A DNA stretch of 64,000 nt. Origin: a virus. Taxonomy: Duplodnaviria; Caudoviricetes. The DNA is taken from the IMG/VR virus record IMGVR_UViG_3300033121_001287, positions 20,525-84,524 of that record. One strand, 5' to 3'. Positions 4,825 through 63,091 of this stretch are shown here, piece after piece. A model generated the notes under the pieces. The model saw only the letters and a list, made by a program, of their open reading frames with translations. It ran no database searches and was not told the DNA's origin. Position 1 is the stretch's first letter, and each line of letters starts with the position of its first letter. The position numbers were made by a program, and so were the translations under genes.

Positions 4825-5006
4825 GTGAATCGACCCCCCGGAAGCCAGCAACGGCGGTAATCTCTGCCCGTATGCCTGCGGAGTTAGTGGATCGGGTCTA
4901 CCAGACCGCGCGAAGTAAGAAGCAGACCGCATCCGAGTTCGTGCATGAAGCAGTCATGCGGGCGATGTCTAGCAAAGATGTCAAGGACGGCGGAAACCGG
5001 GTGTAA
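4821..5006 (+). CDS. Ribbon-helix-helix (Arc/CopG-like) DNA-binding protein
   Basis: AVISARMPAELVDRVYQTARSKKQTASEFVHEAV has the beta-strand plus two helices pattern. Confidence 0.7.
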   Translation: MSESTPRKPATAVISARMPAELVDRVYQTARSKKQTASEFVHEAVMRAMSSKDVKDGGNRV

Positions 5007-5039
5007 ACAGCCCGGCCTGTTTACAGCCGAGATTTCCGC
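4990..5039. promoter_or_regulatory. Inverted repeat TGTAAACAG-N6-CTGTTTACA with outer arms GCGGAAA/TTTCCGC; possible operator or hairpin
   Basis: Perfect 9-bp arms at 5002-5010 and 5017-5025, read directly. Confidence 0.5.
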
Positions 5040-5115
5040 TTGATTCCGGTGCATGCTAAGAGCGTCGAGGAGGTCCGCCCGGCCAGACCGGGCGGCTTTC
5101 CGTTGCTCAAGGCAC

Positions 5116-6783: not shown

Positions 6784-6828
6784 ACAGACGGCCCACATCG
6801 CCGTCCCGAAGGAGAGGAGTGAGAGGCA

Positions 6829-7269
6829 ATGGCAATCACACAGAAGGATCCGAACACGATCTGGCTCGGCGGCCCACGCACGGAGATCAACGATCTCGCA
6901 GCGTCGGAAGTCATCAAGCCGGGCCATCTGCTCGTGCGGTTCAATAACAACGGCGTCATCCGACTGAAGAAGCACGCCACGGCTGGCGGCGCTGCAGTCA
7001 AGATCGTCGCGACCGAACAGAGCATGCTCAACAAGGGCGTGGATGACACCTACGCCGCGAACGACCTCGTCGAGGCATCGGAGTTCGGTCCCGGCGCGTC
7101 GGCGTGGATGTTCATCAACTCGGGCCAGAACATCTCGGCCGGAGGTCTGCTCGAATCGGCCGGTGACGGCACGCTCCGCACGCTCGCCTCGGGTGTGGCG
7201 CTCTTCGCCGCGCTCGAAAACAAGAACGCCACCGTCTCGCCGACGCGCATCCGCGTCGAGGCCGTCTAA
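6829..7269 (+). CDS. Capsid decoration/cement protein
   Basis: Lies between scaffold and MCP; ASEVIKPGHL...GQNI..GGLLESAGDGTL pattern; strong RBS GGAGTGAGAGG. Confidence 0.65.
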   Translation: MAITQKDPNTIWLGGPRTEINDLAASEVIKPGHLLVRFNNNGVIRLKKHATAGGAAVKIVATEQSMLNKGVDDTYAANDLVEASEFGPGASAWMFINSGQNISAGGLLESAGDGTLRTLASGVALFAALENKNATVSPTRIRVEAV

Positions 7270-7305
7270 CCTAGACGCCTCGGCGTCATCAGGAGGATCC
7301 GCACC

Positions 7306-8352
7306 ATGTTCGACAACATGCGATTCACGGCAGCCGGTGGCAAGAGCCCCATCGCTGGCGCGTTGCTTCGTGCTCTCGCGGAAACAGGTGACCTGTCGGT
7401 CGCTTCGCTCCGCTCGCTGTCGCCACTCAGCGACAAGGCGCAGGTGATGGTTGACAAGGCCGTCGTCGAGGTGGGGCTGCAGCGCCTCTCCTTCGTCGCC
7501 GACCTGCTCGCCGAAGGCCTGACGTACCCCCTCACCGATCCGCTGTCGGTGACGCAGCTCGAATGGGAATCGGTCAATCAGGTCGGGCACGCGCAGCGCA
7601 CCATGAGCCCTTCGGCTCGCGGTGAGTTCCAGATGCCGAACCGGACGATCTACCGGCTTCCCATCTACCTCACGACTGACGACTTTTCGCTCGGCATCCG
7701 CACGCTCAAGATGTCGCAGCGCGTCGGTCAGCCCCTCGATACGTCGCTCATCAAGCAGGCCACTCGCCGGGTCAACGAGTCCATTGAGGACGCCGCGATC
7801 AACGGAGCCACCACGCTCGACGGTCAGCCGCTCTACGTCGGCGGCTACGCAGCGCCGGGCCTGCTCAACGCACCGAATGCCAACACCGTCTCGCTGACGG
7901 TTGATTGGACCGGCGCGAACACCATCGGCACGACCGGCCCCGGCATGGTCACCGACGTTCTCGCGATGATCGGCGCAGCGCAGGCCGACAAGAAGTACGG
8001 GCCGTACAACCTGTACGTCGGCACGAAGGCCGGGAACCTGATCGAAGGCGACTTCAAGGTCAACACCACCGACACGATCCGGCAGCGACTGGAGCGGATC
8101 GAGGTTGGCGGCCGTCGCCTGCAGATCAAGGTCACCGACATGTTCCCCGGTGCATCGACGGGCAATCAGTGCGCGCTCGTGCAGATGACGAACGACGTCG
8201 TCGAGATCGTCGATGGGCAGCGTCCGACGGTGATCCCGTGGACGAGCAACGACGGCTTCACGCTGTTCTGGCTCGTCATGGCCATCATGGTTCCGCGCTT
8301 CCGCTCGGACTACGACGGCAACAGCGGCGTGGTGCTCGGCGTCAAGTCGTAA
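7306..8352 (+). CDS. Major capsid protein, HK97 fold (encapsulin/Linocin-M18-like family)
   Basis: 348 aa; VDKAVVEVGLQRLSFVADLLAEGL, LPIYLTTDDFSLGIR, PLDTSLIKQATRRVNE, GLLNAP; highly biased codon usage; RBS AGGAGG. Confidence 0.85.
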   Translation: MFDNMRFTAAGGKSPIAGALLRALAETGDLSVASLRSLSPLSDKAQVMVDKAVVEVGLQRLSFVADLLAEGLTYPLTDPLSVTQLEWESVNQVGHAQRTMSPSARGEFQMPNRTIYRLPIYLTTDDFSLGIRTLKMSQRVGQPLDTSLIKQATRRVNESIEDAAINGATTLDGQPLYVGGYAAPGLLNAPNANTVSLTVDWTGANTIGTTGPGMVTDVLAMIGAAQADKKYGPYNLYVGTKAGNLIEGDFKVNTTDTIRQRLERIEVGGRRLQIKVTDMFPGASTGNQCALVQMTNDVVEIVDGQRPTVIPWTSNDGFTLFWLVMAIMVPRFRSDYDGNSGVVLGVKS

Positions 8353-34004: not shown

Positions 34005-34835
34005 TTACATCTCGGTGGCTTCACCCTGCCCGTCGAACTTGCCCGTGTCGAAGCTCGTGTCGCCTTCGTCGTCGGCCACGCCATCACGGTTCGTCTCGAT
34101 GACCTGATCCTTCAGCGACTCGTGGAACTGCTTCGCGAAGGCGAAGAGCGCCGCGCCAGCGGGCTTGTCCGTCGGAATGAACCCGGCGTTTTTCACCGAG
34201 AAGACTCCGTAGGTGGTGTCCTCGCCCTTCTTGTTCTTCCCGCGCACGATCTTCGAGGAGATGTTGTACATGCGCGCGTAGATCGGCCCGGTGGTCTGCG
34301 CGATGAACGTCGTCCAGAGCCCGGCGGCCTTGCGCTGCTCCTTGTTCGTGGTCTTGATCGAAACGACCACACCTTCGGGAGCCTTGCCGGGCCGCAGCAG
34401 CAAGCTGATGAACTCGACGAACTCCGTGGCGCGCGGCGGATTGTCACCCTCCCACTGGAGGCGGGGATCACCGGCCGGGACGTTGCGGTCGAGTGGACGC
34501 TTCTTGTCCTGCGGATCGAACTCGATGCGCGTCACGTGACGCTTGACGGGTACGAGACGCAGCGGGCCTTCGCCGTAGATCTCCTCGCTGACGTCGTTGA
34601 ACATCTGACCGATGGCCAGCCCCTTGATGTACTCGGCCGTGCCGGGCAGCAGCTGCGGGCTGAGACCCTGTGCGATGGCGAGTCGGGGCAGGCGGATCTC
34701 GTCGGGCCGGATGTCTTCGGTGCCTGAGCGGTCGTTCGCGTTGATGCCTTCGGGACGCGCGACGGAACCTTCAAGCTCGCCCCAGTTCTGCTCTGCCAGT
34801 TCGAGTGCTTCGTTCTTCTGCGTTGTGTCAGCCAT
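34005..34835 (-). CDS. Putative phage ssDNA-binding protein
   Basis: EIRLPRLAIAQGLSPQ, GQMFNDVS; acidic C-terminal tail; strong codon bias; replication context. Confidence 0.65.
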   Translation of the reverse strand: MADTTQKNEALELAEQNWGELEGSVARPEGINANDRSGTEDIRPDEIRLPRLAIAQGLSPQLLPGTAEYIKGLAIGQMFNDVSEEIYGEGPLRLVPVKRHVTRIEFDPQDKKRPLDRNVPAGDPRLQWEGDNPPRATEFVEFISLLLRPGKAPEGVVVSIKTTNKEQRKAAGLWTTFIAQTTGPIYARMYNISSKIVRGKNKKGEDTTYGVFSVKNAGFIPTDKPAGAALFAFAKQFHESLKDQVIETNRDGVADDEGDTSFDTGKFDGQGEATEM

Positions 34836-35073
34836 GTTGCGATCCTCGTGTGCTTTGTGCGTGATGTTGATGACACCTTGCGCTCATGGGCAAGGCGCAT
34901 TTCTTCCGGTTACAGCCCCACCAACCGCCTCCGTTCTTGTGGCCGTAGCACTCGGAGCAGAAGTGCTCGTGCGTAGGAACCCGATGTTCGCGGCAGTACT
35001 TCGTATAGCCGCGCCCGTCACTCTCGTACACCTTGCATCCGCATGCAAGGAGAATCTTCGGAGCACCACCCAC
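34828..35073 (-). CDS. Cys/His-rich small protein
   Basis: CGC, CREH, CSEC, C..KKC; fills the gap between ATPase and SSB. Confidence 0.45.
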   Translation of the reverse strand: MGGAPKILLACGCKVYESDGRGYTKYCREHRVPTHEHFCSECYGHKNGGGWWGCNRKKCALPMSARCHQHHAQSTRGSQHG

Positions 35074-35075
35074 GG

Positions 35076-36455
35076 CTACGATCCGGCGACGGATCCGTCT
35101 TCGATCATAACGTTGACGGCCCCGGCGTCCTTCGTGACGTACTCCATCCAGATCTGCGCGTCGGCGGCCTCGGCCTGCTCCGCGACGGTCTTGATGCTGT
35201 CCTCGTCGAGAAGATTGCCATTCCGAATCAAGAGCACCTTCAACGTCGGGTTCAACGCGAGCCCAATGGCCACGCTGACCTTGAGTTGATCGGAAGATGA
35301 AGCCTGCTTGAACGGGATCCCGTTCAGCATCACTCCATCGTCACCAAGGCTGAGGCCAGGCACCGGGAACTGAGCGGATTCGATCATCACCCGTTTGGCC
35401 TCATCGGCGGCTGCGATATCGCCGTCGTACCCGGCGATGACGTTCTCAAGGTTTCGCAGGTCTTGAACCGCCTTCTCTTTTTCAAGGTTTGCTCGCACGT
35501 TGGCGTTCAAATCGCTGATCCGACGCCACTCGGCTCTCAACGTCTCGAAGCTCGTGGAGGCTTCCACGGCGGCTTCCTCCTTCTTGGTAACGTCAGCGAG
35601 CTTTGACCTGAGATCAATGATCCCATCGGTGAGATCAGAAACGTTCTTATCAAGTGCGTTGTACTTGTTCTGAAGCACAGTGATCTGCTGAACGATCAGT
35701 GCCATCTCGGCGCGGTGATCTCCACGCTTGATGTCCGCGCTTCGGATGAGAAACTCCAGTTGCGTTTTCTCATCACGAATGCGTGCGGCCTCTTCGGCGA
35801 CGGCCATCGTCTCCTTGATCTGACGCTCGATCTCTTCGAGTGGGATCTCCTTCTCAGGAGCATTCTCGTAGAAGGGCATCTTTGCGACGATGTGGTATCG
35901 GCCCTCATAGACCTTCTTCGTGACAAGTCGAAGATCAGAGGCTTGTTTCCGCATGTCCTCGATGCCGCGCGTGTCGATGCCAGCAAGGCTTCGCAACGTC
36001 TCGAGTTGTCGTTTGGGATCGTCCTGCGCGAAGGCCAGCGGATCGAAGGTGAGGCGTCCGAGAATCTTGTCGAGCATCGCTTGCGGTGAAGCGTACTTCG
36101 CACCGTCTTTGCTCGACACGGTCAGCGTGCTGCGCGTATCCGAGTACACCGGGTTGCAGGTGCAGTCACCGCCCGCCAAGCCCAAGCATCCATCGGCGTG
36201 CAGGCGATCCCGGCTGAAGCGACGGGTGACAATCCAGTCGCCGAGATCCGCGACGATCTTGGCTTCGGTTTCCCCGATGCGAATCGGTTCGGCCGGAACC
36301 ATCGACGCCCCACCAAGCACCATCGCGATGGAGTTCAGTACGCTGCTCTTCCCGGCCCCGTTCTTCCCGCCGATGGTGATGAGATTACCATCCGGCGAGA
36401 TATCGACGGCCGTCAGCCGAAGGATGTTGTTCGATTGCAGTCGGACGATCTTCAT
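35076..36455 (-). CDS. SMC/Rad50/RecF-like coiled-coil ATPase
   Basis: GGKNGAGKSS Walker A, central coiled coil, QASSSDQ signature-like, LLIRNG degenerate Walker B. Confidence 0.85.
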   Translation of the reverse strand: MKIVRLQSNNILRLTAVDISPDGNLITIGGKNGAGKSSVLNSIAMVLGGASMVPAEPIRIGETEAKIVADLGDWIVTRRFSRDRLHADGCLGLAGGDCTCNPVYSDTRSTLTVSSKDGAKYASPQAMLDKILGRLTFDPLAFAQDDPKRQLETLRSLAGIDTRGIEDMRKQASDLRLVTKKVYEGRYHIVAKMPFYENAPEKEIPLEEIERQIKETMAVAEEAARIRDEKTQLEFLIRSADIKRGDHRAEMALIVQQITVLQNKYNALDKNVSDLTDGIIDLRSKLADVTKKEEAAVEASTSFETLRAEWRRISDLNANVRANLEKEKAVQDLRNLENVIAGYDGDIAAADEAKRVMIESAQFPVPGLSLGDDGVMLNGIPFKQASSSDQLKVSVAIGLALNPTLKVLLIRNGNLLDEDSIKTVAEQAEAADAQIWMEYVTKDAGAVNVMIEDGSVAGS

Positions 36456-36968
36456 CTACTCCTCCTTCCCGCCAGCGTACCGGATCTTGACCTTGCTGAA
36501 GCAAGTGACGCCATCCGGCTCCGGTTCGCCATGCAGCAGACGTTCCTTCGTCAGGCTGTTCGTCGTCTGCCAAGGGAGCGCGAGGGACTTTTCCAACCCG
36601 TTGTTGATGCACCAGAGTCGGAACGTTTCGCGGTCTTCGACCTGCGCGTATGGCTCGTGCCAGATCGAGATGTTGGTGCCGTTCTCCAGCTTGATGCTGC
36701 CGAGACCCTCGTTGTCGAACCGGTCTGCGAGCAGCTGCGTCAGCGCTTCGATCTCGTCCTCGATGGACTTCAGCAGCGCTTCCGCAGCGGCCTTGCGCTG
36801 GCGAGCGTCTTCGTAGAGTCGAGCGTAGGAACCCGTATCGGTCAGTTCAGGATCGGCCAGCAGCACCTTTTTCAAGGCTTCGACGCGTTCCTGCTGGTTG
36901 CCGTCGGTGTTGAGGAGCGTCGGAAGCGATCCGACGAGGTGTGCATACTTGCCGCGTGGCTTAGCCAT
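36456..36968 (-). CDS. Conserved phage replication/recombination-region protein
   Basis: Coiled coil then GSIKLENG...YAQVEDRETF..W; TAATG coupling. Confidence 0.6.
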   Translation of the reverse strand: MAKPRGKYAHLVGSLPTLLNTDGNQQERVEALKKVLLADPELTDTGSYARLYEDARQRKAAAEALLKSIEDEIEALTQLLADRFDNEGLGSIKLENGTNISIWHEPYAQVEDRETFRLWCINNGLEKSLALPWQTTNSLTKERLLHGEPEPDGVTCFSKVKIRYAGGKEE

Positions 36969-37384
36969 TACAGCCCCTCGACTCCGGTTATCGCTTTGCC
37001 ACGAATGATCACGAGGTCGGGCGCGTATCCGCCCTTCGCCACGCGAAGCCATGCTTCGTAGCTTGCTGTTATGCTGGCGAACGCACCAACGTTGTTTGCA
37101 ACAAGCCACTCGGCGAGTGCTTCGGGTGTCGGCATCACCGGCGAGATGGGAGTGCCCTCTGTCGTTGATTCGTACATCTGGTAGTGCGTGCGTTCGGCTT
37201 CGGGCCAGTTCGGCATGCAAGAGATGCCGTAGTGCGGCGGATCCCCTCGCAACCACTCCTCACGCAAGCCTTCTGCGATCTCCGCTTCGTTGTACGGGAA
37301 TCGCTCGAACATCGGAATGTAATATCCGTGCTCGTTCTTCGGGTGTTCCCAGTCCGGCGGTACCCGCCGTACTTCACGCCCCAT
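36968..37384 (-). CDS. Conserved phage hypothetical protein
   Basis: MGREVRRVPPDWEHP, YQMYESTTEGTPISPV. Confidence 0.65.
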   Translation of the reverse strand: MGREVRRVPPDWEHPKNEHGYYIPMFERFPYNEAEIAEGLREEWLRGDPPHYGISCMPNWPEAERTHYQMYESTTEGTPISPVMPTPEALAEWLVANNVGAFASITASYEAWLRVAKGGYAPDLVIIRGKAITGVEGL

Positions 37385-40634: not shown

Positions 40635-40832
40635 TTACTCCGGGTAGACGTCTTCGGCGCGCAGTCCCTTCTCGCCTTCGGACTCCTCGAACTCGACGGC
40701 CATCCCGACTTCAACTTCCTCGTACTTGACGGTCTTCAGAGCCGACGCGTGGAAGAAATAGTCCTTCCGATCCGCTCCATTGATGAACCCGCATCGCTTG
40801 TCAACCAGCAACTTCTTGATCTTGCCCTTCAT
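40635..40832 (-). CDS. Cold-shock domain protein
   Basis: MKGKIK...KRCGFI...DYFFHAS (RNP1/RNP2), VEFE...KGLRA. Confidence 0.9.
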   Translation of the reverse strand: MKGKIKKLLVDKRCGFINGADRKDYFFHASALKTVKYEEVEVGMAVEFEESEGEKGLRAEDVYPE

Positions 40833-41667
40833 GGACCCTCGCCTTCGGTGTGGGATACTGACCGAGCTTTGCCGCCGCAGCCAGACGTTTCGTATCGGCA
40901 GAGAAGTCAGACCTGAGAATGAAATCCCAGTACCCACGATCTGCCGTTCTCATGGGCTTGCCCGCGAATTTGCCCCACTGTGCGAAGCACGGTTCACCGT
41001 TGACGAACTTGAACTTCCCGTCCGGATCGATCCATCCCGGCCACTGAAGTTCGTGAAGCTCCGCGACGGTGCGCGGCAACTGCTCGTACTTTGTCACCTG
41101 CGCGACGATCACTTCCGTCGAAGCCTCCACGTCCGCGAGCGCTCCGTGCGCTCCTTCAAGCACCTTCCCGGTGTGTTCGAGATAGAGATGGCTCAGCGTG
41201 CGCGGTTTTCCAAGTTGCTCAAGCCGGTCGATATCGATGATGCAGGCTTCGCCGTATGCCCATTCGACGCCCGCACGCTCCATTTCGGCCGCCATGATTC
41301 GCAGATCGAAGCGCACGTTCTTTCCTGCGAAATCACAGTTTGAAAATCCCGTCGCTAGATTCGTCGCAAGATGCTTGAAGGCTGGCCAACCGGCGAACTC
41401 ATGATCGTCCGGGTGCCCCTCAATCGGCATCTTGCAATGACGGCACTGCAGGAAGATGCCGTTGTCGATCCCGTGCACGGCCGTCGCCGATTCAGGGATC
41501 TTGATCAACGGATTGATGAGTGATCGCCACGACTTTACCAATCCGACGACCGGTTCCCACACCTGAAAACCGATCTCAACGATGCGGTCTTCACGCGTGT
41601 TGGTACCCGTCGTTTCCGTATCGAACACGATCAGGCGACGGGTGATGTTCAGGGTTTCGTGAATCAT
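40801..41667 (-). CDS. DnaQ-like DEDDh 3'-5' exonuclease
   Basis: VFDTETTG, GKNVRFD, HGALADV. Confidence 0.9.
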   Translation of the reverse strand: MIHETLNITRRLIVFDTETTGTNTREDRIVEIGFQVWEPVVGLVKSWRSLINPLIKIPESATAVHGIDNGIFLQCRHCKMPIEGHPDDHEFAGWPAFKHLATNLATGFSNCDFAGKNVRFDLRIMAAEMERAGVEWAYGEACIIDIDRLEQLGKPRTLSHLYLEHTGKVLEGAHGALADVEASTEVIVAQVTKYEQLPRTVAELHELQWPGWIDPDGKFKFVNGEPCFAQWGKFAGKPMRTADRGYWDFILRSDFSADTKRLAAAAKLGQYPTPKARVHEGQDQEVAG

Positions 41668-41843: not shown

Positions 41844-42176
41844 TCACTCCTTGAGCTTCCATGCGGGACCAAGGCTGCGGTACTCGACACGACGGCCGCA
41901 GGCTTCGTGATGCTGGATGCCGAGACGCATGCCAGCGCTGATGCCGAGATCTTCGTAGACCGCAATCAGATGCGCGTTCTCGGCCCACGCGAATCCGGCG
42001 ATGATCCCAAGGTCACGGTCTCGTTCGACGCGGTCGTCGAGCACCTCGGTGTAGAACAGATGCGAAGCGAACGGTGCCTCGCCGCGATTGAGGCAGTCGC
42101 GCAGGCACATCAAGAGGTACGCGCGGTTCAACGCGTAGTCGCCTCGGAAGGGGCTCTCAACAATGACTCTGTTCAC
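41844..42176 (-). CDS. Nucleoside 2-deoxyribosyltransferase-like / DUF4406-like protein
   Basis: VIVESPFRGD, GEAPFASH, GIS.GM..GI. Confidence 0.55.
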   Translation of the reverse strand: MNRVIVESPFRGDYALNRAYLLMCLRDCLNRGEAPFASHLFYTEVLDDRVERDRDLGIIAGFAWAENAHLIAVYEDLGISAGMRLGIQHHEACGRRVEYRSLGPAWKLKE

Positions 42177-42493
42177 AGGGACTCCGCTTCGAGGGTGTAA
42201 CCACATTCGACGAGCATCTGCTTCAGCGCATCGGACGACAGCGATGACATGGAAATGCCCCGCTTGTTCGCTTCGAGCAGCAGAGCGTCCTTGACCGACT
42301 CGGACACGTTGATGCCGAGAAACACGTCGCGGGGAACCTCCTGCTTCTTGTGCTTGCGCTTCTTCTCGACGGAGTCGAGAATCTGATAGATCCTGCCAGC
42401 CGAGAGATTGAAGGCGGCTCGCAACTTCAGGATCGGTTCACCCGCCTGATAGCGAGCGATGATCTCCGCGTTGCGTTCATCGTGCTTGCTCAT
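42173..42493 (-). CDS. HTH plus ribbon-helix-helix DNA-binding protein
   Basis: RNAEIIARY..G...LRAAFNLSAGRIYQIL, then LGINVSESVKDAL..EA..RGISMSSL. Confidence 0.65.
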   Translation of the reverse strand: MSKHDERNAEIIARYQAGEPILKLRAAFNLSAGRIYQILDSVEKKRKHKKQEVPRDVFLGINVSESVKDALLLEANKRGISMSSLSSDALKQMLVECGYTLEAESL

Positions 42494-43551
42494 TGGCCGT
42501 CTCGTATGGTCATCACTACGTTAATGAAATCCGAACCATCGGTCAGAAGCAGAGGGGTTTTGAGATCCTTCAGGTTGACCGTCGCCGTGTTTTCCGCTCC
42601 GTGCTCCAAGAAGTCCATCAGGTACTTCCAGCACACCGTGATCCGCAGATCGGGGCCGCCGTAGGTGGCTTCAACGACCTCGTTTGCATCTCCGAACTCC
42701 GTGCTACGAGCCGAGAGAGTCACGCGTCCGGTCGAGAAGCTCAACGAGATCACGTCGGACACCAGTCCGACGCGGTTGATAGCCGCCGCAAACAGACCCT
42801 TTGGCATCACCGCTCGATGGTTGTTTTCCGTCGGAATGATGCGCTGGTAGCGCGGGAACTCCCCGTCCAGCATGCGCGAGATCAGCAGACGTCGTTCGTA
42901 TTGAAAAAAGAGATGCCGATCCCCACGCGAGAAGTAGACATCACCAAGAGGCGGCTGTGCCAAAAGCGCATCGAGCGTCTTCGTCGGGATGATCACTTGG
43001 TACTCAGGCCCGTCCTCGCGCGTGGCCGTCGCGATGGAGAGCCGCTTGCCGTCCGTCGATACCATTGCCATGACGTTCTTCGTGAGCGTGAGCAACGCCC
43101 CCATCATGGCGTGCTGCTGCGCCTTCTCACTGATCGAGTAGCGCGTGCGCTCGATCAGCAACCGCAGCGCACGGGCCGAGAGCTTCGCGGGTTCACCTAC
43201 GACGTCGGGCATGGGCGGGAAGTCATCCGGGTGCATGGATGATAATCGTGACTTGTAGTTCCCGGCCGTCAAGCGTCCGTTGTTGATGTTGATATCGCCG
43301 TTCGGCATGCGCTCTAGCACGTCGAGCAGCATCTTGGCCGGAAGCGTAATCGATCCCGTTTCATGCACCTCGGCTACGCAGTCGGTGCTGAGTGCGATTT
43401 CCAGGTCGGTCGCAGCGATGTAGAGGTTCTGCGCGCCTTCGGCTCGAAGAAGCACATGACCGGTAATCGGAATCGTCGGCTTCGAAGCAGCGATCTTGCT
43501 GAGCACCTTCATGTCCGCAGCCAATGACTGCGCGTTCACCGTGACGTTCAT
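42490..43551 (-). CDS. dnaN: DNA polymerase III beta sliding clamp
   Basis: IAATDLE, MVSTDGKRL, SRMLDGEFPRYQRIIP; 353 aa. Confidence 0.9.
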   Translation of the reverse strand: MNVTVNAQSLAADMKVLSKIAASKPTIPITGHVLLRAEGAQNLYIAATDLEIALSTDCVAEVHETGSITLPAKMLLDVLERMPNGDININNGRLTAGNYKSRLSSMHPDDFPPMPDVVGEPAKLSARALRLLIERTRYSISEKAQQHAMMGALLTLTKNVMAMVSTDGKRLSIATATREDGPEYQVIIPTKTLDALLAQPPLGDVYFSRGDRHLFFQYERRLLISRMLDGEFPRYQRIIPTENNHRAVMPKGLFAAAINRVGLVSDVISLSFSTGRVTLSARSTEFGDANEVVEATYGGPDLRITVCWKYLMDFLEHGAENTATVNLKDLKTPLLLTDGSDFINVVMTIRDGQ

Positions 43552-44543: not shown

Positions 44544-44703
44544 GTCGTTGCGGCCTCGTCATGAAAAAGATGATGAACATGAACACAAAGCTGATCGCCA
44601 TCATCGCGCCTCCGCGCTTCGCTTCGATCAGCAGAAGCACGGACGCGAGCCCGGCGAGCAGGTGTGTGACGTAAGCTCGGTACGAATGGAAGACCAGCAT
44701 CAT
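44536..44703 (-). CDS. Small two-TM protein
   Basis: Hydrophobic 55-aa ORF with overlaps at both ends. Confidence 0.5.
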   Translation of the reverse strand: MMLVFHSYRAYVTHLLAGLASVLLLIEAKRGGAMMAISFVFMFIIFFMTRPQRRD

Positions 44704-45110
44704 TTCAGTCCGTGAATCAGCTTGATGTACTGCACAAGCCAAAGGTAATCGAAGCGTGAAATCATCGCTTCGTAGAGTCCCGTGCCTCCGTCCTTCCACG
44801 CGTCGATGTCGCGCGGATGGACGATAAAGATTGCCGGTTCAAGTTCGTCGTCTTCGCGGAAGATGATGTAGCGGCAGAACCCATTCGCGGCAAGGCGTCG
44901 GCAGGTATGCGCCTGTAGTTCCATCGATTGGAAATCGGGCGTGCCGTGTTTGAACTCCCACCACGAGGTGCTACCGCCGTAGGTGACGCTAAGATCCGGA
45001 ATGCCAACCGTGCGAACGTCTTCGTGACGCAGCGCAATCGCACCGGGCCAGTCACTACGCATGGTCTTCATGAATCGGGACCGTAACTCGGCTTCGCGCT
45101 TCTTCGCCAT
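44700..45110 (-). CDS. VRR-NUC-like PD-(D/E)xK nuclease
   Basis: GIPDL...WWEFK...Q motif. Confidence 0.8.
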   Translation of the reverse strand: MAKKREAELRSRFMKTMRSDWPGAIALRHEDVRTVGIPDLSVTYGGSTSWWEFKHGTPDFQSMELQAHTCRRLAANGFCRYIIFREDDELEPAIFIVHPRDIDAWKDGGTGLYEAMISRFDYLWLVQYIKLIHGLK

Positions 45111-45118
45111 TACAGGCA

Positions 45119-45147
45119 AGGGTAACGGGCCTTAAAGGCCGAGTCAA
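45119..45147 (-). promoter_or_regulatory. sigma70-type promoter TTGACT-17-TACCCT
   Basis: Read directly; the spacer holds the palindrome GGCCTT-N-AAGGCC; A-tract upstream. Confidence 0.7.
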
Positions 45148-45164: not shown

Positions 45165-47669
45165 TTACTTGCACTCAGCCCAGTTGGCTCCCTCTTTACA
45201 CTCCCAGAGGATCGGCACGCGCAGTTCGGGAAACGACTGGTGATTGAGAATCTCATGTACCCGCTGCAACGTTTCAGGTTGCTGTGCGTCACCAGTGATT
45301 TCGTCATGCACCGTCATCCGCATCAGCAGCCCGGTGTGCTTGCGAGCTTTGTGCAGTTCAACGATCTTCGTTTTGACAATGTCACCCTCGGTGCCCTGAT
45401 CGATCATGCAAAACGCTTTGTGCAGCCGGTAATTATCGGGGAACCGGCTCCGACGCTTTTTGATCGTCCGCACGAAGCCGCGATGCGGGAACTTCCGATG
45501 CAGGGCCACGCTCTCCGGCGTCGAATTGCACCACTCGTCGCAGTGGCTCATCGCCAGATGCGATGCTTGCTTGAGCATCGGTTCGATCTCTGGAACTTCG
45601 CGAGCGTAAATAGCTTCAATCTCTCGCGCGTGCTCCAATCGAGGATCGGTGCGCTGCGCCTTGGCTGCACGAATCTGCTTAACCTCGATGGCGTTGATGA
45701 ACTCCATCATCTCGGCGACCTTGAGCAGCCCGCCACCGAAGATTTTCATGAAGTTCATGGCCTTCAGCTTCTCGTAGATCAGATCGGGCTTGTGCGGCGC
45801 AATCATCCCCATAATCATCTTGTGGAAGCTCGCCGTCGGATCTGCCGCGTACATCGCAAGGATGCGCGGGTTGTTCGCGTGGTGCGCGAAGATGCGGTAT
45901 TGGATCTGCGCCGCATCCGCTGCGAAGTACCGATGACCCTTGGCCGGGATGTACAACCGGCGCGGGAACAGATCCTCGCCGAAGACCGCAGCGTGATTAC
46001 CATGATTCGGCACCTGCTGAATGTAGCCAGCGCTGAATCGACCGGTAACCGTGCCGCCGTCTTCGCCGCGCAACTGATGCAGATCGAAGCGCAGGATCCC
46101 ATCGGGGCCAAGCATCTCATTGTACGGCTTGAAGATCTTCGAGTAGAGACTCGCAAGCTGACTGGCGAGATGCGCCTTCCGCACAATCGGATGATCGATC
46201 TTCGAAACGATCCCATCCGCGAACGTGTCCTTGCCGTTTTCAGTCACGGTAATGGGAATCTTCAACGCCTCGAAGAGACGCTTCCACGTTTTACCCGTAT
46301 GGTCGAACGCGAAGCCCACTTCGGTCGAGATCTCCATCAGCAAGCGCTGGTGCCGTCGCTGACATTCTTGCGTGAACTCAGCTAGCAACTCCAGGTCGAT
46401 GGGCGCACCGTTCTTTTCCATTTCAACGACGGCAAAGATTACGTCGTCCTCAAGGCGCTGCACGTCCATCAGGTCTTGCTCGATCAACTGCGGGTACATC
46501 ACGGCGTGAAGATCGGCGATCAGCTTGGCCTGATACTCTGCGCGTCGGGCGACGTAAGAGGCGTGGTACTCCTCCATGCGTGATTCATCGACGCGTGGTA
46601 CCTGCGGCCCACCGGGAAGCAAATCGGCTGCGAGGATATCGAGTGAGAAACGCTTCCGATGATCATCAAGCAACGCAGCCGTGTGCATGATGTCACTGAC
46701 CGTGCAACCCTGCTCTTCGAAGTCGATGCCGATGTTATGGCCCATGTGCAGATCGAATCGCGTGTTGGCGTTGATGATATGCCGCCCGCGAAACGACTTC
46801 AGGTATCGTACGACGGCGGTCTCGTCAAGATTGCCACCACCGTGATGCGCAAAGGGAAGATACCGCTGCAGTCGCCCGTCGATGGTGCCGACCGTCACGC
46901 CGATGGGTCGATGTTTGCCATTGACCCAGTTGAGCCCGTTCGTCTCGAAGTTCACGACGAGGGTTGGATCATCAATGCGAGGCGGCTCTTGCGCGACCCA
47001 CGATGTGGTCTGCTGCGTCGGCCCGGCCTGACTGAGAAAGGTGCTCAACGACGGAGGCTTGGTGCTCGCTGCGTCTTCGTAGTAAGGCAGATCGAGCTTG
47101 AGGATCTCGGGCTTCAGCGCTTTGATGCGCTCGACCATCTCCGGAGTCAGTTGCGATGCGTTCGAGACGAACAGCTTCCCGTCCCGCACCATGCACTTGA
47201 AGCCGCGCACCGCAAGTTCCGCCACCAGATCTCTTGCCGGGTTCGCCTCGATCTGCGTGTTGAGAAACGCCGACATCGATGGGATCACTTCCGCCTTAAC
47301 CACCGGATCCGCAAGATCCACAGCTCTCTTCGTCGGCACCGGAGGCTCGAACGGTAGCTCAACCGTAGGGGCGGCCGGGACCGGCACGGGCCGGGGTGAA
47401 ATCCGCGTTGCTGGCGGCGTTTCGGCCCCGTCCAAGGCAAAGGCCAAGGCACTGGGACCGGCGGGCCTCTCAGGGTCGGCGGGCCGTACGGGCAAACGTG
47501 GGGCTTGCAGACGTGGCGCGGCGACCGGCGCAACGTTCACCGCTGGCAGCGGAGGAATGTCCTGATAGGGATGGACGGGATCCTCCAATAACGCTGCGCG
47601 ATACGCGAACGTGGAGCCCTGCGCGCGTAGAAATTGCCTTATGAGCCGGTGCTCTTCGTGGCGGTTCAA
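45165..47669 (-). CDS. polA: Family A DNA polymerase (no 5'-3' exonuclease; degenerate 3'-5' exonuclease; Pro-rich N-terminal extension)
   Basis: TVTGRFS, DAAQIQYR, KAMNF..IFG, QGTEGDIVK, TVHDE. Confidence 0.9.
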   Translation of the reverse strand: MNRHEEHRLIRQFLRAQGSTFAYRAALLEDPVHPYQDIPPLPAVNVAPVAAPRLQAPRLPVRPADPERPAGPSALAFALDGAETPPATRISPRPVPVPAAPTVELPFEPPVPTKRAVDLADPVVKAEVIPSMSAFLNTQIEANPARDLVAELAVRGFKCMVRDGKLFVSNASQLTPEMVERIKALKPEILKLDLPYYEDAASTKPPSLSTFLSQAGPTQQTTSWVAQEPPRIDDPTLVVNFETNGLNWVNGKHRPIGVTVGTIDGRLQRYLPFAHHGGGNLDETAVVRYLKSFRGRHIINANTRFDLHMGHNIGIDFEEQGCTVSDIMHTAALLDDHRKRFSLDILAADLLPGGPQVPRVDESRMEEYHASYVARRAEYQAKLIADLHAVMYPQLIEQDLMDVQRLEDDVIFAVVEMEKNGAPIDLELLAEFTQECQRRHQRLLMEISTEVGFAFDHTGKTWKRLFEALKIPITVTENGKDTFADGIVSKIDHPIVRKAHLASQLASLYSKIFKPYNEMLGPDGILRFDLHQLRGEDGGTVTGRFSAGYIQQVPNHGNHAAVFGEDLFPRRLYIPAKGHRYFAADAAQIQYRIFAHHANNPRILAMYAADPTASFHKMIMGMIAPHKPDLIYEKLKAMNFMKIFGGGLLKVAEMMEFINAIEVKQIRAAKAQRTDPRLEHAREIEAIYAREVPEIEPMLKQASHLAMSHCDEWCNSTPESVALHRKFPHRGFVRTIKKRRSRFPDNYRLHKAFCMIDQGTEGDIVKTKIVELHKARKHTGLLMRMTVHDEITGDAQQPETLQRVHEILNHQSFPELRVPILWECKEGANWAECK

Positions 47670-49685: not shown

Positions 49686-51236
49686 TTAGGAGGCTCCAAC
49701 CCACACCAGTTCCTGCTTCGCGCGGGTGATCGCGACGTAGCTGATGTTCTGTTCTTCTTCCGAGTCCTGCCGCAGCGTGCTGCGGAGGATGAACACTCGG
49801 TTGGCTTCGAGCCCCTTGGCCTTGTGGACCGAAGAGCAGGTGATCATCCCGGCCGCACCGAGTCCGTCGTCCGAGAAAAGGTGGTCGATGCGCGATTCGA
49901 TCTCGCTGACCGACTTCGCGCCTTCCGCGAGCGCTACCAGCATCGCGGCCTGATCGAGGATCGCGTCGATCTTCGCATCGATGGATGCGTGCCGCGCCTT
50001 CGGTGCCTGTGCGCGTTGCGCCTTCAGTCGAGCCTCTTCGCGCGAAGCCCATGCTTCGACCTTCGCGTGGTAGACCGGGACGCTGGTGGCCTTGAGCTTT
50101 TTCACCAAGGCCCGCAGCCCGGCACCGATGTCGCGTCCGGCGATCCGGGTGCGCTTGCCGTTGCGAAGGAGCTTCATCGCGATGCTGACCAGCGGAGCGT
50201 TGACGCGGCTGATGATGAAGTCGCCGGGTCCGGCAGCGTTGAAGAGGTTCTCGATGGCCAGCTCACTGATCTGCCCTTCGGGGTTGTTCGGCCCCGCTTC
50301 GAAGTCAGGTACGAAGCTCTGCGCGAGCCCGACGATGCTCCGGCCGCAGCGGTAGGTGACCGTCAGGCCCATTTCCACCGCGTTGAGTTCGCGCTTCAGG
50401 CGGTCGAGGCTCTGGCAGTCGGCTCCGATGAACCCGAAGATGGCCTGCCGGTTGTCGCCAACGATGGCGATCCGGCCGCCGGGCTTCAGGACACCCTGCG
50501 CGATTTCGAGTTGCGCCGTGGTCATGTCCTGCGCCTCGTCTACGACGACCAAGTTGAACTGCTTGGTGAGCCACCGGTTCCGCACCGGCAGGAAGATCAT
50601 GTCGCTGCCGTCGATGGTGTCGCCCGCAACCACCTGCGAGGCGAGTTCCATCGCGGCGAGCGCCTTGCGTTCGACGTAGCGGGCGTCGAACCCGATGTCG
50701 GCCCATGTCTCGTCCGGTTCGCACTCGAAGGCGATGGCGATGTCGGTCAGCTCGCCGATCTCCCGCGCGTGCGGTGCCATCAGGCGACCCTTCGTGTGCA
50801 GCTTCGAGACCAACCGGGTGATCGCGTCGGGCGCGGCGGTGACGTCCATCTGCTCGTCGTGCGTCAGCGAGTTGTAGGTCTTGCCATGCGGGATCGGCTG
50901 CGGGCGGCAGACGCGCTCGGCGATGGCGTCAGCGCGGGCGTTGCTATAGTCCACCTTGATCCGTTCCCGGAACCGGCCGATGCAGGCGAGGCCCACCGAG
51001 TGCAGCGTGCGCGCGGTGATGTTGGCGGCCGGGCCGATGCGGGCCTGAAGCTCGGTCTGGATGGTCTTGCTGAAGGCGCAGATCAGGATCTTCGGTTCGG
51101 GTGCTTTTTTCACCGCTTCGAGGATCGTCGTCGTCTTGCCGGTGCCTGCGCGGGCGCGCACCACCAAGTTCGGGCGCGCGGGATCGGGGTGCTCGAACCA
51201 GTCGAAAATCGCGGTCTGTTGTGGGCTCCAGTTCAT
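49686..51236 (-). CDS. UvrD/Rep-like superfamily 1 helicase
   Basis: RARAGTGKTT, VVVDEAQD, VGDNRQAIFGF, TYRC, SVHKAKGLE, YVAITRA. Confidence 0.92.
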   Translation of the reverse strand: MNWSPQQTAIFDWFEHPDPARPNLVVRARAGTGKTTTILEAVKKAPEPKILICAFSKTIQTELQARIGPAANITARTLHSVGLACIGRFRERIKVDYSNARADAIAERVCRPQPIPHGKTYNSLTHDEQMDVTAAPDAITRLVSKLHTKGRLMAPHAREIGELTDIAIAFECEPDETWADIGFDARYVERKALAAMELASQVVAGDTIDGSDMIFLPVRNRWLTKQFNLVVVDEAQDMTTAQLEIAQGVLKPGGRIAIVGDNRQAIFGFIGADCQSLDRLKRELNAVEMGLTVTYRCGRSIVGLAQSFVPDFEAGPNNPEGQISELAIENLFNAAGPGDFIISRVNAPLVSIAMKLLRNGKRTRIAGRDIGAGLRALVKKLKATSVPVYHAKVEAWASREEARLKAQRAQAPKARHASIDAKIDAILDQAAMLVALAEGAKSVSEIESRIDHLFSDDGLGAAGMITCSSVHKAKGLEANRVFILRSTLRQDSEEEQNISYVAITRAKQELVWVGAS

Positions 51237-51257
51237 CGACGCGTAACCTCCGAAGAC

Positions 51258-51286
51258 ATGATGCCGGAAAGCAGGATGGGAGTCGA
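51258..51286 (-). promoter_or_regulatory. Weaker sigma70-type promoter TCGACT-17-CATCAT
   Basis: Same A-tract context as the others; upstream of the UvrD-like gene. Confidence 0.45.
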
Positions 51287-51294
51287 GCTTTTTG

Positions 51295-51489
51295 TCAGTC
51301 GGCCCATCCCCGGCTACGCTCGCGCTCGTACTCCTCGTCGAACGCGGTGCGCTTCGCGTCCGCGTAGGTCTCGTCCTCGCAGGCCCGGCAGATGACGACG
51401 TCCTCGTACTCCCGGCCGTGCCACTTCCGCGTTTGGACTTCATCTTCCTGGTTCGGGATCGGCTTGCCGCAGCGCTCGCACGTGGTCAT
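51295..51489 (-). CDS. Small Zn-ribbon protein
   Basis: CERC...CRAC. Confidence 0.6.
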   Translation of the reverse strand: MTTCERCGKPIPNQEDEVQTRKWHGREYEDVVICRACEDETYADAKRTAFDEEYERERSRGWAD

Positions 51490-60391: not shown

Positions 60392-62560
60392 ATGGCGGTC
60401 CTAATGAACGAACTGCATCGTTTTCTTTCTGAACTCTACGCCGGGCAGCAAGGCGTACTCGAACTTCGGACGTTTGATCATCCGCAGGCCAATAAGCTCA
60501 GAGCGTTCATCGCGGTCATCGAAGGGCAATACGAACAGGCGCGCGTCGAGCAGTTCATCAAGGACACGATCAAGATCAAGATCGGTGCGTTCTACGGGGT
60601 CGCTCTTCGATCCGAAGCCTCGCTCAAGGACGGCAAGGGTGACGCAGCCCATTGCCATCTGCTGACGGCGCTCTTCGTAGACGTCGATGACAAGCATCTC
60701 GGCCGCGAAGAGTCCCTTCGGCGGCTCGCGTCCTTCCCGTTGAAGCCATCCATGATGGTCGATAGCGGAGGGGGCTTTCACCCGTACTGGCTCCTCAAGC
60801 ATCCGATCCGTTTGACAGGCGACGGCATGTCGCAGGCCAAGAGCCTGCTTCGACGGTTGGCTTCCGCCGTCGCCGACGTGGTCGATGAATCGGTCTCAGA
60901 GCCAGCGCGCGTGTTGCGATTGCCATCCGGGATCAACTTCAAAAAGCAATACCCGGAGCCCAGGCCTGTCCGTTTGATGATCGACGACGTAGCGCCCCGA
61001 TACGAGATCGCGGAGTTCGAGGCCATCCTTCCAGCCGAACGCACGAGCGGATCAGCGACGGAGGGCTTCCAAGTTCCACCTACGATCAAGTCCGGTGACC
61101 GGCACGAGATCATCTACAAGTTCCTCCGCTCCCAAAAGGCGCGCGGCGTCTCGAAGGAAGTCGCGCTCGTCGGATGCCACAAGCTCAACGAGGACCAGTG
61201 CAAGCCGCCGATACCCAAAGACGAACTCGACGCGTACCTTCGTCGGGTGTGGGATCAAGGCGACTCCCCGACGTTCAAGCAGAACGCGGAGCACCACGAC
61301 TTCGTGCGCGACCGGCAAGGCGTGATTATCAAGGACTCCCAAGAGAACATCGCGCGAGCCTGCGCGCGGATGGCTTACAAGTTCAGCTTCGATCAGTTCG
61401 CCGAGCGCATGCTGGTCAACCATGAGAACAAACCGCCGGTGCTCTTAGGCGACCAGTTGATCACGTCGCTCTGGCTGAAGATCGACCGCGAGTTCCGCTT
61501 CCGACCTACCTACCAGTTCTTCGAACGCGTCATCTACGATATCACCTACACGAACGCGTTCCATCCCTTGCGGATCTATTTCGATTCCCTCAAGTGGGAT
61601 GGTGTCGTGCGCTTACCCTACTGGCTGCGGAATTACGGTGGCGCCATCGACGAGGGTAGTGATAGTCGTGATGGCCCGACGTATCTGGAACGTATCTCGA
61701 AGATCATGTTCACCGCAATGGTCCGACGCGTGCGGGTGCCGGGATCTAAGTACGACGAGATGATTATCCTTGAGTCTGAGCAGGGCTTTAGTAAGTCGTC
61801 AGCGCTCAGGGCCATTTGCCCAAGCGAGGAGTACTTCTCGGACGATCTGCCGTTGAACGTCGATGCCAAGCAAATCATCGAACGCACGCTTGGCAAGATG
61901 CTCATCGAAGCATCTGATATGTCCGGAAGCCGCAAAGCAGACCGCGACCACCTCAAAGCGATGCTCTCGCGCCAAAAGGATGGCCCGGCCCGTTTGGCTT
62001 ACGCACGCACGCCGGTGGAGCGCTGGCGGCAGTTCATCGTTGTAGGTACGACGAACTCAGGCGAGTATCTCGCCGATAGCACCGGCAACCGGCGGTTCTG
62101 GCCCGTGAGGGTCGGACGGTTCGATGTGGAAGGGATCATCCGGGATCGCGATCAACTGTGGGCCGAAGCCTGCTTCTACGAATCACGCGGCGACTCGATT
62201 CGGCTGGAAGAAGAATTGTGGGCTGAGGCGGGTGAGATTCAGGAACGACGGCGTGAAGTGGACGCGTGGGAAGATGACATCCGTCGTTACATCGAAGACC
62301 TCCAGCCCGCTTCGACGGGGCGCAAGCAGGTGACCGCGCAAGCGTTGTGGGAGGCTCTTGGAATTGCCATTGACCGACGCGACCTGATGGGAGCCCGGCG
62401 CATTGGCGCGATCATGCAGCGGCTCCGGTTCCGACGGACGAACATCCGTGGCACGGATAACAAGGTGCAGACGGGTTACGTGAGCCTTGGCGACGAGATC
62501 AACTACGAGAAGGAAGTGGCCGCGCAGCCTGGGCCGCCGCTTGAGGATGCACCGTTTTAG
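60392..62560 (+). CDS. Primase-polymerase (RepB/AEP-like) - PriCT - VirE/SF3-like helicase
   Basis: LFVDVD, DSGGGFHPYW, ARVLRLP, GDRH, ESEQGFSKSS, TGNRRFWPV. Confidence 0.85.
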   Translation: MAVLMNELHRFLSELYAGQQGVLELRTFDHPQANKLRAFIAVIEGQYEQARVEQFIKDTIKIKIGAFYGVALRSEASLKDGKGDAAHCHLLTALFVDVDDKHLGREESLRRLASFPLKPSMMVDSGGGFHPYWLLKHPIRLTGDGMSQAKSLLRRLASAVADVVDESVSEPARVLRLPSGINFKKQYPEPRPVRLMIDDVAPRYEIAEFEAILPAERTSGSATEGFQVPPTIKSGDRHEIIYKFLRSQKARGVSKEVALVGCHKLNEDQCKPPIPKDELDAYLRRVWDQGDSPTFKQNAEHHDFVRDRQGVIIKDSQENIARACARMAYKFSFDQFAERMLVNHENKPPVLLGDQLITSLWLKIDREFRFRPTYQFFERVIYDITYTNAFHPLRIYFDSLKWDGVVRLPYWLRNYGGAIDEGSDSRDGPTYLERISKIMFTAMVRRVRVPGSKYDEMIILESEQGFSKSSALRAICPSEEYFSDDLPLNVDAKQIIERTLGKMLIEASDMSGSRKADRDHLKAMLSRQKDGPARLAYARTPVERWRQFIVVGTTNSGEYLADSTGNRRFWPVRVGRFDVEGIIRDRDQLWAEACFYESRGDSIRLEEELWAEAGEIQERRREVDAWEDDIRRYIEDLQPASTGRKQVTAQALWEALGIAIDRRDLMGARRIGAIMQRLRFRRTNIRGTDNKVQTGYVSLGDEINYEKEVAAQPGPPLEDAPF

Positions 62561-62569
62561 GAGACCACA

Positions 62570-63091
62570 ATGATTCCAAAAGGCAGCAACGACTCGGTTC
62601 GGAGCCTCAAGTCACTCACGCGCAGCGAGTATTTGCGCTGGCGATGGGTTGAATGCACTGAGTTTCATCACAGCGAAACAATGCTGGTGCGCCTGCTTGA
62701 ACGCACGCCGGACGAAGTGCTGCGGGCCGAAGCCGAGTGGGAAGCGTTCTCGAAGGCGTGGTTGACGAGTGATCCGCCGACGTACGATCTCGTCGCACAC
62801 CTGAAACGGCAGCGAGAGTTTTCGATCAAGACGTTTGGCCCGTCGGATCGCAACAACGGCATCATCGATCACATCCGCAAGGAGCTGTTGGAAATCGAGC
62901 AAGAGCCCACGGATCTGCAAGAATGGATCGACGTGGCGCTGCTCGCGTTCGACGGGGCTTGGCGCGCGGGGTTTCCTCCGTGGATGGTGGCAGAGGCATT
63001 CCGCTTGAAGCTGGAGAAGAACGAACAACGGAAGTGGCCGGACTGGCGCACGGTTCCGGAGGGGCAAGCTATTGAGCACTTGGAGGAGTGA
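62570..63091 (+). CDS. DUF550 dATP/dGTP pyrophosphohydrolase-domain protein
   Basis: FS.KTFGP...GIIDHIRKEL.EI...P.DL.EWIDV.LLAFDGAWRAG...KLEKN..RKWPDW. Confidence 0.85.
   Translation: MIPKGSNDSVRSLKSLTRSEYLRWRWVECTEFHHSETMLVRLLERTPDEVLRAEAEWEAFSKAWLTSDPPTYDLVAHLKRQREFSIKTFGPSDRNNGIIDHIRKELLEIEQEPTDLQEWIDVALLAFDGAWRAGFPPWMVAEAFRLKLEKNEQRKWPDWRTVPEGQAIEHLEE

Follow-up and report, generated by a model that had tools for sequence, protein, structure and literature searches.

The question raised by this locus is whether a DNA polymerase that departs from several hallmark residues of its family has acquired new substrates or still does ordinary work by other means. The DNA analysed, called here the window, is the final 64 kb (64,000 nucleotides) of the 84,524-bp IMG/VR record IMGVR_UViG_3300033121_001287, an uncultured virus of the Caudoviricetes whose record is rated 100% complete by CheckV. 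It carries polA, encoding a family A DNA polymerase (PolA). PolA has Gln and Phe in place of the steric-gate Glu and its partner Tyr, two residues that textbooks treat as invariant in family A polymerases and that polymerase engineering has targeted. The original prediction, made from the letters of the window, treated all the substitutions as a single adaptation to a new nucleotide selectivity. Our analysis does not favour changed selectivity. Judging from the way in which the Gln of the gate and a Glu of motif 6 change together among related enzymes, PolA looks like a rewired normal replicase rather than a polymerase with exotic substrate tastes. The gene and its main parts are as follows.

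45165-47669, minus strand: polA, family A DNA polymerase of 834 amino acids (AA), from the open reading frame (ORF) and the Pfam DNA_pol_A match
47007-47669, minus strand: N-terminal extension of PolA, residues 1-221, conserved in full-length homologues
46485-46976, minus strand: 3'-5' exonuclease-like domain with a dead site (N240, E242, D306, R376, Q380), from the mapping to Klenow
45168-46484, minus strand: polymerase domain (thumb, palm and fingers), from the Pfam match to residues 428-832, the structural model and the fold match

According to the ORF list and its translation, polA opens with a TTG codon, which falls at Met1 of full-length homologues in the alignment and overlaps the stop codon of the upstream gene. 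The original prediction had the right gene but too short a span (45165-46960): it takes in the exonuclease-like and polymerase parts, covers only the last ~598 residues and omits the conserved N-terminal extension of ~221-225 AA. PolA matches the Pfam profile DNA_pol_A (PF00476; 81.4 bits for a cut-off of 34.3, E 8e-23, residues 428-832) as well as PHROG 17. An AlphaFold2 model of residues 222-834 (predicted local distance difference test, pLDDT, 94.3) aligns with Klenow structures at template modelling (TM) scores of 0.78-0.80 (1D8Y, 1KFS, 8OO6), which indicates a Klenow-like fold. The best solved match by sequence is 7PBK, the DpoZ polymerase of phage phiVC8 (family profile E 1e-74). PolA is a family A polymerase; judged by this best match in the PDB, and with a Phe at position B3, where Leu or Phe marks the phiJL001/phiVC8 supercluster of phage PolAs, it may be nearest to that supercluster (Czernecki et al. 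2021, 2023; PMC8599892, PMC10201439). A scan of GTDB genomes gave only two distant matches and so assigned no host. Within the whole 84.5-kb record PF00476 matches polA alone, and no family B, Pol III alpha (PolC/DnaE) or Y-family polymerase is matched. PolA is the sole family A, B, C or Y polymerase found in the phage genome and must therefore copy it. For the same reason a translesion or deliberately mutagenic role, which had been among the functions first predicted, is unlikely.

Residues were mapped by HMMER alignment to Taq and by comparison of a 47-sequence family profile with Klenow, and the codons were read directly. Alignment places the four motifs of the polymerase active site as follows.

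45894-45917, minus strand: motif A, DAAQIQYR, with catalytic D585 and with Q590 at the steric-gate Glu position (E710 of Klenow)
45735-45776, minus strand: motif B or O-helix, YEKLKAMNFMKIFG, with Y632, K636, F640 and F644
45381-45413, minus strand: motif 6, FCMIDQGTEGD, with C754 in place of Asn, D757, Q758 and E761, the partner of Q590
45300-45311, minus strand: motif C, VHDE, with H788, catalytic D789 and E790

In motif B, Y632, K636, F640 and F644 are equivalent to Klenow R754, K758, F762 and Y766; in motif 6, C754, Q758 and E761 correspond to N845, Q849 and A852; E790 of motif C corresponds to E883. The canonical steric-gate set E710/R754/Y766/N845 is thus replaced by Q590/Y632/F644/C754, and the residue calls of the original prediction all agree with the Taq and Klenow alignments. 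It was also right that the catalytic Asp residues of motifs A and C are kept (D585 = D705, D789 = D882). Both of these, together with K636 and R544 of the TGR motif, are invariant in relatives. Motif B shows no indel when compared with family members that have Arg at 632; their Arg occupies this very column, with identical spacing, and Y632 is therefore not a product of misalignment.

The comparison covers 264 relatives from two overlapping sets: a word-indexed search gave 120, and 150 representatives were taken from an exhaustive HMMER search. Q590 is found in 20 of them. All 20 of these Q-type enzymes carry E761, compared with none of the 240 enzymes with E590, in which this position of the motif-6 'QGTAAD' helix is Ala, Gly or Cys. 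F644 accompanies Q590 in 19 of the 20. On an IQ-TREE phylogeny of 83 sequences, inferred with the five trait columns left out, the Q state needs 10 changes (bootstrap range 10-10), at least 9 of which are forced by well-supported branches. The Gln/Glu switch thus arose about 9-10 times. E761 changes with Q590 in each of nine phylogenetically independent pairs (sign test p 0.004); in 4-5 of these pairs F644 changes too, and in the remaining ones it was there beforehand. The switch is unlinked to the state of the exonuclease site and to the presence of Y632 or R632. A single recombining 'QFE module' was considered and rejected because region-wise trees, including one of palm and fingers alone, still need about 10 changes, a pattern for which one such module cannot account. 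In raw identity, seven Q-type sequences are nearer to Glu-type enzymes than to any other Q-type sequence. No description of the Gln-gate/Glu-761 pair was found in the literature searched.

A structural rationale can be proposed from studied enzymes. E710 of Klenow is hydrogen-bonded to Y766; E710Q alone yields a mutator that incorporates nucleotides slowly, and the Y766F enzyme resembles the wild type (PMC3715850). The TGR arginine and the steric-gate Glu of Pol gamma stabilise each other within one network (PMC11122685). In the Q-type enzymes the change from Tyr to Phe at the Y766 position would free the Glu from its hydrogen bond, after which the carboxylate could be supplied by motif 6 (E761) rather than by motif A (the E710 position). 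The active site would then keep exactly one acidic partner beside the invariant R544, presumably through a Q590-E761-R544 contact. The observed rule, 'never both, never neither', seems to fit a compensatory pair better than the loss of a gate, and ordinary dNTP (deoxynucleoside triphosphate) selectivity is most likely retained.

The same data bear on the idea that PolA is a low-fidelity (mutator) replicase, in which the gate change weakens base selection and raises the phage mutation rate while a separate exonuclease, DnaQ (described below), limits the damage. The Klenow E710Q mutator (PMC3715850), the lack of proofreading in PolA itself and the loss of the minor-groove Asn (C754) would agree with it. 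However, about nine or ten lineages have retained the state, in every case together with E761, and this suggests restored function; Klenow E710Q is moreover slow, a defect that a replicase could not afford, and a sole polymerase that copies 84.5 kb must be reasonably accurate. We consider a mutator replicase very unlikely.

The substitutions differ markedly in their distribution and form four evolutionary layers rather than a single syndrome. Y632 occurs in 185 of the 264 relatives (Arg in 68) and is an old family-wide trait. The dead form of the exonuclease site, with Asn at 240 and without Asp at 380, is found in about half of the relatives and is nearly universal in the near clade of PolA (108 of 121 sequences, half of which also lack E242). 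F644 is present in 50 relatives. C754 is restricted to five sequences, which on a careful tree form one clade including the PolA of the window (P0001 and P0003-P0006 of our set; support 95/83). A quick tree had split this group, but the split is rejected by the approximately unbiased (AU) test, which favours the joined tree by 160.8 log-likelihood units. With such different distributions, and with the equivalent of E710Q tied to a new Glu, the notion that all substitutions form one adaptation to a new nucleotide selectivity is not supported.

A changed substrate range (rNTP, that is ribonucleoside triphosphate, tolerance, a modified dNTP or a noncanonical base) could still be read from the altered gate, O-helix and motif 6. 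Q590 sits where the Klenow residue excludes rNTPs, but Gln is isosteric with Glu, so that the clash with the 2'-OH should persist, and its strict pairing with E761 looks compensatory. The nearest solved structure, phiVC8 DpoZ, also has Phe at the Y766 position (PMC8599892, PMC10201439); F644 and Y632 are however common in relatives with otherwise ordinary sites. C754 and D757, which lie in the minor-groove-sensing helix and are private to a small clade, speak for a changed range, as do the fusion of many relatives to DNA-modifying domains and the presence in this genome of a dATP/dGTP pyrophosphohydrolase of DUF550 type and of a deoxyribosyltransferase-like protein. On the other side, no gene family specific to Q-type loci was found within 10 kb, and no genes for base replacement were found in the complete genome. 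PurZ (PF00709) has no match in the complete 84.5-kb record (the control matched in 14 of 14 genomes), and the idea of a Z-genome is rejected. No TET/JBP, TAGT or C5-methyltransferase was found in the complete genome, the TET search having had no positive control, and TET-type hypermodification in this genome is rejected as well.

The DUF550-type gene (PF04447, E 3e-23; 62570-63091, plus strand) adjoins that of the primase-helicase and belongs to a family that serves the Z-genome pathway in some phages. It occurs in only 1 of 50 related records, and that record has a Glu gate; DUF550 is therefore rejected as a partner of the Q-type gate. The deoxyribosyltransferase-like DUF7768 protein (41844-42206, minus strand; PHROG 355 'nucleoside 2-deoxyribosyltransferase', E 8e-17), whose gene lies between those of the clamp and of DnaQ, may act on nucleotide pools. 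None of the 77 related loci has a homologue within 10 kb of polA. Taken with the residue data, a changed substrate range is unlikely. Quite unlikely, too, is the narrower proposal that the relocated carboxylate itself alters sugar or base selection, by relaxing rNTP exclusion or by accepting a modified dNTP, and that phages toggle between two regimes.

Fusions to DNA-modifying domains are a feature of the wider clade. About 40 of 120 relatives (P0020, P0025, P0028 and others) carry them at the N-terminus. Many have a TET-associated glycosyltransferase domain (PF20691, E 5e-37; residues 67-267 in P0028), and others an N6/N4 DNA methylase or a ParB_N domain. These phages have their replicase physically linked to DNA-modifying enzymes. 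A search of five fusion-bearing records, made with no positive control, detected no TET/JBP gene.

The second departure of PolA from its family concerns proofreading. ExoI reads NFET, with N240 equivalent to D355 and E242 to E357; ExoII keeps D306 (D424); the YxxxD of ExoIII reads R376...Q380, so that Y497 and D501 are both lost. Two of the four metal-binding carboxylates and the ExoIII Tyr are thus gone, in agreement with the dead proofreading site announced by the original prediction. The proofreading-competent DEDD-Y signature (ExoI DxE, ExoII D, ExoIII YxxxD) is absent from PolA, in which the Pfam 3'-5' exonuclease profile (PF01612) is not detected either. The domain is nevertheless not decaying but strongly selected: among dead-site relatives its mean pairwise identity is 0.547, against 0.509 for the polymerase domain, and 36 of its columns are at least 90% conserved, including N240, H308 and R376. 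It would form an exonuclease-shaped part of the Klenow-like core that is no longer able to cut, and probably keeps a structural or docking role.

Two genes downstream of polA and a motif within it may supply what the core lacks.

40801-41667, minus strand: stand-alone DnaQ-like DEDDh exonuclease of 288 AA with a conserved C-terminal domain (RNase_T, PHROG 192)
42490-43551, minus strand: DNA polymerase III beta sliding clamp of 353 AA, with three Pfam beta-clamp domains
47433-47459, minus strand: GPSALAFAL, residues 71-79 of PolA, candidate beta-clamp-binding motif in a disordered Pro-rich linker, from the distribution of the motif

The DnaQ gene lies 3.5 kb from polA. Its product matches RNase_T (35.7 bits for a cut-off of 24) and PHROG 192 'DNA polymerase exonuclease subunit' (E 6e-30). 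It had been predicted to be intact, and indeed all its DEDDh residues (D16, E18, D121, H174 and D179) are kept and are invariant in 23 homologues. Of 50 related IMG/VR records, 30 have an RNase_T-type gene; among the 12 with a completeness of 90% or more, 11 have one. The claim that proofreading was outsourced to DnaQ is only partly sustained. In the wider group there is no dependence: among records at least 70% complete, DnaQ occurs in 12 of 14 with a dead site and in 9 of 11 with an intact-like site, and no association is seen across the whole group (Fisher p 0.78). Being present whatever the exonuclease state of PolA, DnaQ is an old companion of the polymerase family and not a specific patch. 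In contrast, the 13 clamp-encoding records show a reciprocal pattern, with DnaQ in all nine dead-site records and in none of the four with an intact-like site. A family-specific profile at E 0.1 did not find it in these four, one of which is a complete genome with terminal repeats. Such reciprocity is what redundancy of two proofreaders would predict and, on only about two independent contrasts, supports proofreading in trans. DnaQ may thus act on the products of PolA, the neighbouring gene likely supplying proofreading in trans.

Two further features of DnaQ can be mentioned. A CxxC...H-rich insertion, possibly a zinc ribbon, interrupts the exonuclease domain of the DnaQ of the window at residues about 75-95. 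It is shared with six clamp-clade relatives and two without a clamp (L032, L046) and is absent from the other homologues. In another locus (L008) the C-terminus of DnaQ reads QTSLFD, which resembles a clamp-binding motif.

The clamp matches PF00712, PF02767 and PF02768, each above its cut-off, and homologues occur in 13 of 50 related virus records, all within the near clade. The N-terminal extension of PolA begins with a conserved stretch of ~35 AA and further comprises Pro-rich linkers and a small docking-like domain; a weak TubC_N match covers residues 147-191. It is conserved in P0004, P0007, P0014, P0022, P0027 and P0078. Of 14 loci with a clamp, 6 have a PSAL[DAS]F motif in their PolA, against none of 63 clamp-less loci, and other clamp-clade PolAs exhibit N-terminal motifs of the GLSLF or LGLF type. 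This distribution suggests that GPSALAFAL binds the clamp. The phage beta clamp would then likely give processivity, being reached through the clamp-binding-like motif of the extension.

The replication module also takes in the deoxyribosyltransferase-like and DUF550-type genes and that of a small putative PD-(D/E)xK protein. Its other genes encode a Dam-like methyltransferase, a SNF2 helicase, an SbcC-like ATPase and the two following proteins.

49686-51443, minus strand: UvrD-like superfamily 1 helicase (Pfam UvrD-helicase, E 4e-20)
60392-62560, plus strand: primase-helicase with PriCT_1 and VapE/D5-like domains (Pfam VapE-like_dom, E 2e-54)

The clamp and DnaQ could instead join or hijack the host Pol III for bulk replication and leave only gap filling to PolA. 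Beta and epsilon are indeed parts of Pol III, and the host machinery is required anyway as no phage clamp loader was found. However, clamp-binding-like motifs are found in PolA only where the phage encodes a clamp, and the clamp gene is adjacent to polA both here and in cultured relatives. In many relatives DnaQ is found alongside PolAs that are competent in proofreading, which speaks for this alternative, but it and an intact PolA site are mutually exclusive within the clamp clade, and its C-terminal domain is folded and conserved, unlike the epsilon tail. Service to the host enzyme therefore has little probability.

The account that we hold, with some reserve, to be probable is that PolA is the replicative polymerase of the phage within a multi-protein replicase, its own exonuclease dead, with the clamp, DnaQ in trans and a coupled Gln/Glu pair in the active site. 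Several points weigh against it. No clamp-loader gene was recognised. The reciprocal DnaQ pattern rests on about two independent contrasts, and beyond the clamp clade DnaQ occurs together with PolAs whose exonuclease sites are intact; its job may therefore be another one, for example in repair. C754, at the minor-groove Asn position, and D757 are private to the clade of this PolA and could alter fidelity or selectivity, and the pyrophosphohydrolase and deoxyribosyltransferase-like genes show that the phage manipulates nucleotide pools. Finally, E710Q alone impairs Klenow, and its rescue by a Glu at 852 is a prediction.

PolA can be compared with several known systems. It shares with phiVC8 DpoZ (7PBK) the Klenow-like exonuclease and polymerase architecture, the Phe at Y766 (position B4) and a Tyr aligned to Y632. 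However, DpoZ has a steric-gate Glu, an active DxE exonuclease site and Leu at B3, and travels with PurZ, whereas PolA, with ~20% identity to it, has Q590/E761, a dead site and Phe at B3. Since PurZ is absent, PolA is not a DpoZ. F644 matches the Phe at B4 of DpoZ but, occurring in 50 of 264 relatives, is not diagnostic here. According to Czernecki et al. 2023 (PMC10201439), the exonuclease seems to be preserved in every phage PolA, and Phe at B4 is a feature of DpoZ only; the metagenomic PolA clade described here is an exception to both statements.

Klenow has the same fold and shares with PolA the catalytic Asp residues, K758, F762, Q849 and the TGR Arg. It differs by E710, R754, Y766, N845 and an active DEDD-Y site, and is a repair enzyme, not a clamp-tethered replicase. 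As in the Pol I large fragments of Taq and Bst and in actinobacterial APEX PolAs, an exonuclease-shaped domain is kept while catalytic carboxylates are lost. Those are cellular repair polymerases, however, whereas here the dead domain is strongly conserved across a large phage clade. The arrangement also resembles the bacterial Pol III core, in which a polymerase without its own proofreading is encoded together with a separate DEDDh exonuclease and a beta clamp; the putative clamp-binding motif of PolA would add to this likeness. Unlike in Pol III, the polymerase is of family A and not C, and the C-terminal domain of DnaQ is different and folded.

The nearest cultured relatives, at about 24-27% identity, are those of Rosemountvirus (Salmonella phage vB_SE1_KM / BP63 group), Synechococcus phage Ssp-JY38 and Pseudomonas phage PaMx11. 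Their PolAs are canonical throughout (DEDYD exonuclease site, Glu gate, Arg, Tyr and Asn), and in Rosemountvirus and Ssp-JY38 a beta-clamp or processivity-factor gene lies directly upstream of polA. In Ssp-JY38 (PP438428.1) the clamp and polA genes are themselves directly preceded by a 7-deazaguanine set (QueE, QueC, QueD, FolE and a tRNA-guanine-transglycosylase-like gene).

The surroundings of polA include other possible nucleic acid enzymes. Directly downstream, a 139-AA protein (44700-45119, minus strand) is encoded at a position conserved in most of the 77 related loci. It has no Pfam match and exhibits an IPD...EFK pattern typical of PD-(D/E)xK / VRR-NUC nucleases; VRR_NUC is assigned in the Atlas to 14% of one neighbouring cluster. 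The SbcC-like ATPase (34005-37256, minus strand) is matched only at its N-terminal P-loop and is flanked by proteins similar to Pam3 gp34 and gp33; together the three may make up a nuclease set for phage recombination or end processing. Upstream of the window, the portal protein (genome coordinates 4752-7346, locus L078) carries a C-terminal 2H phosphoesterase / Acb1-like domain (PF13563, E 4e-12; PF23474, E 6e-6).

The pairing of a Gln gate with a Glu in motif 6 represents a natural and repeatedly evolved alternative to the Glu gate of family A polymerases. It is open to mutant cycles, in which A852E (with Y766F) should rescue the slow mutator E710Q in Klenow. The clade runs counter to the published view that the proofreading site is retained in phage PolAs without exception, and points to a family A replicase that would be built like Pol III, tethered by a clamp and served by an exonuclease in trans. 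The reciprocal loss of DnaQ or of the built-in exonuclease offers a natural experiment on the number of proofreaders that a replicase needs.

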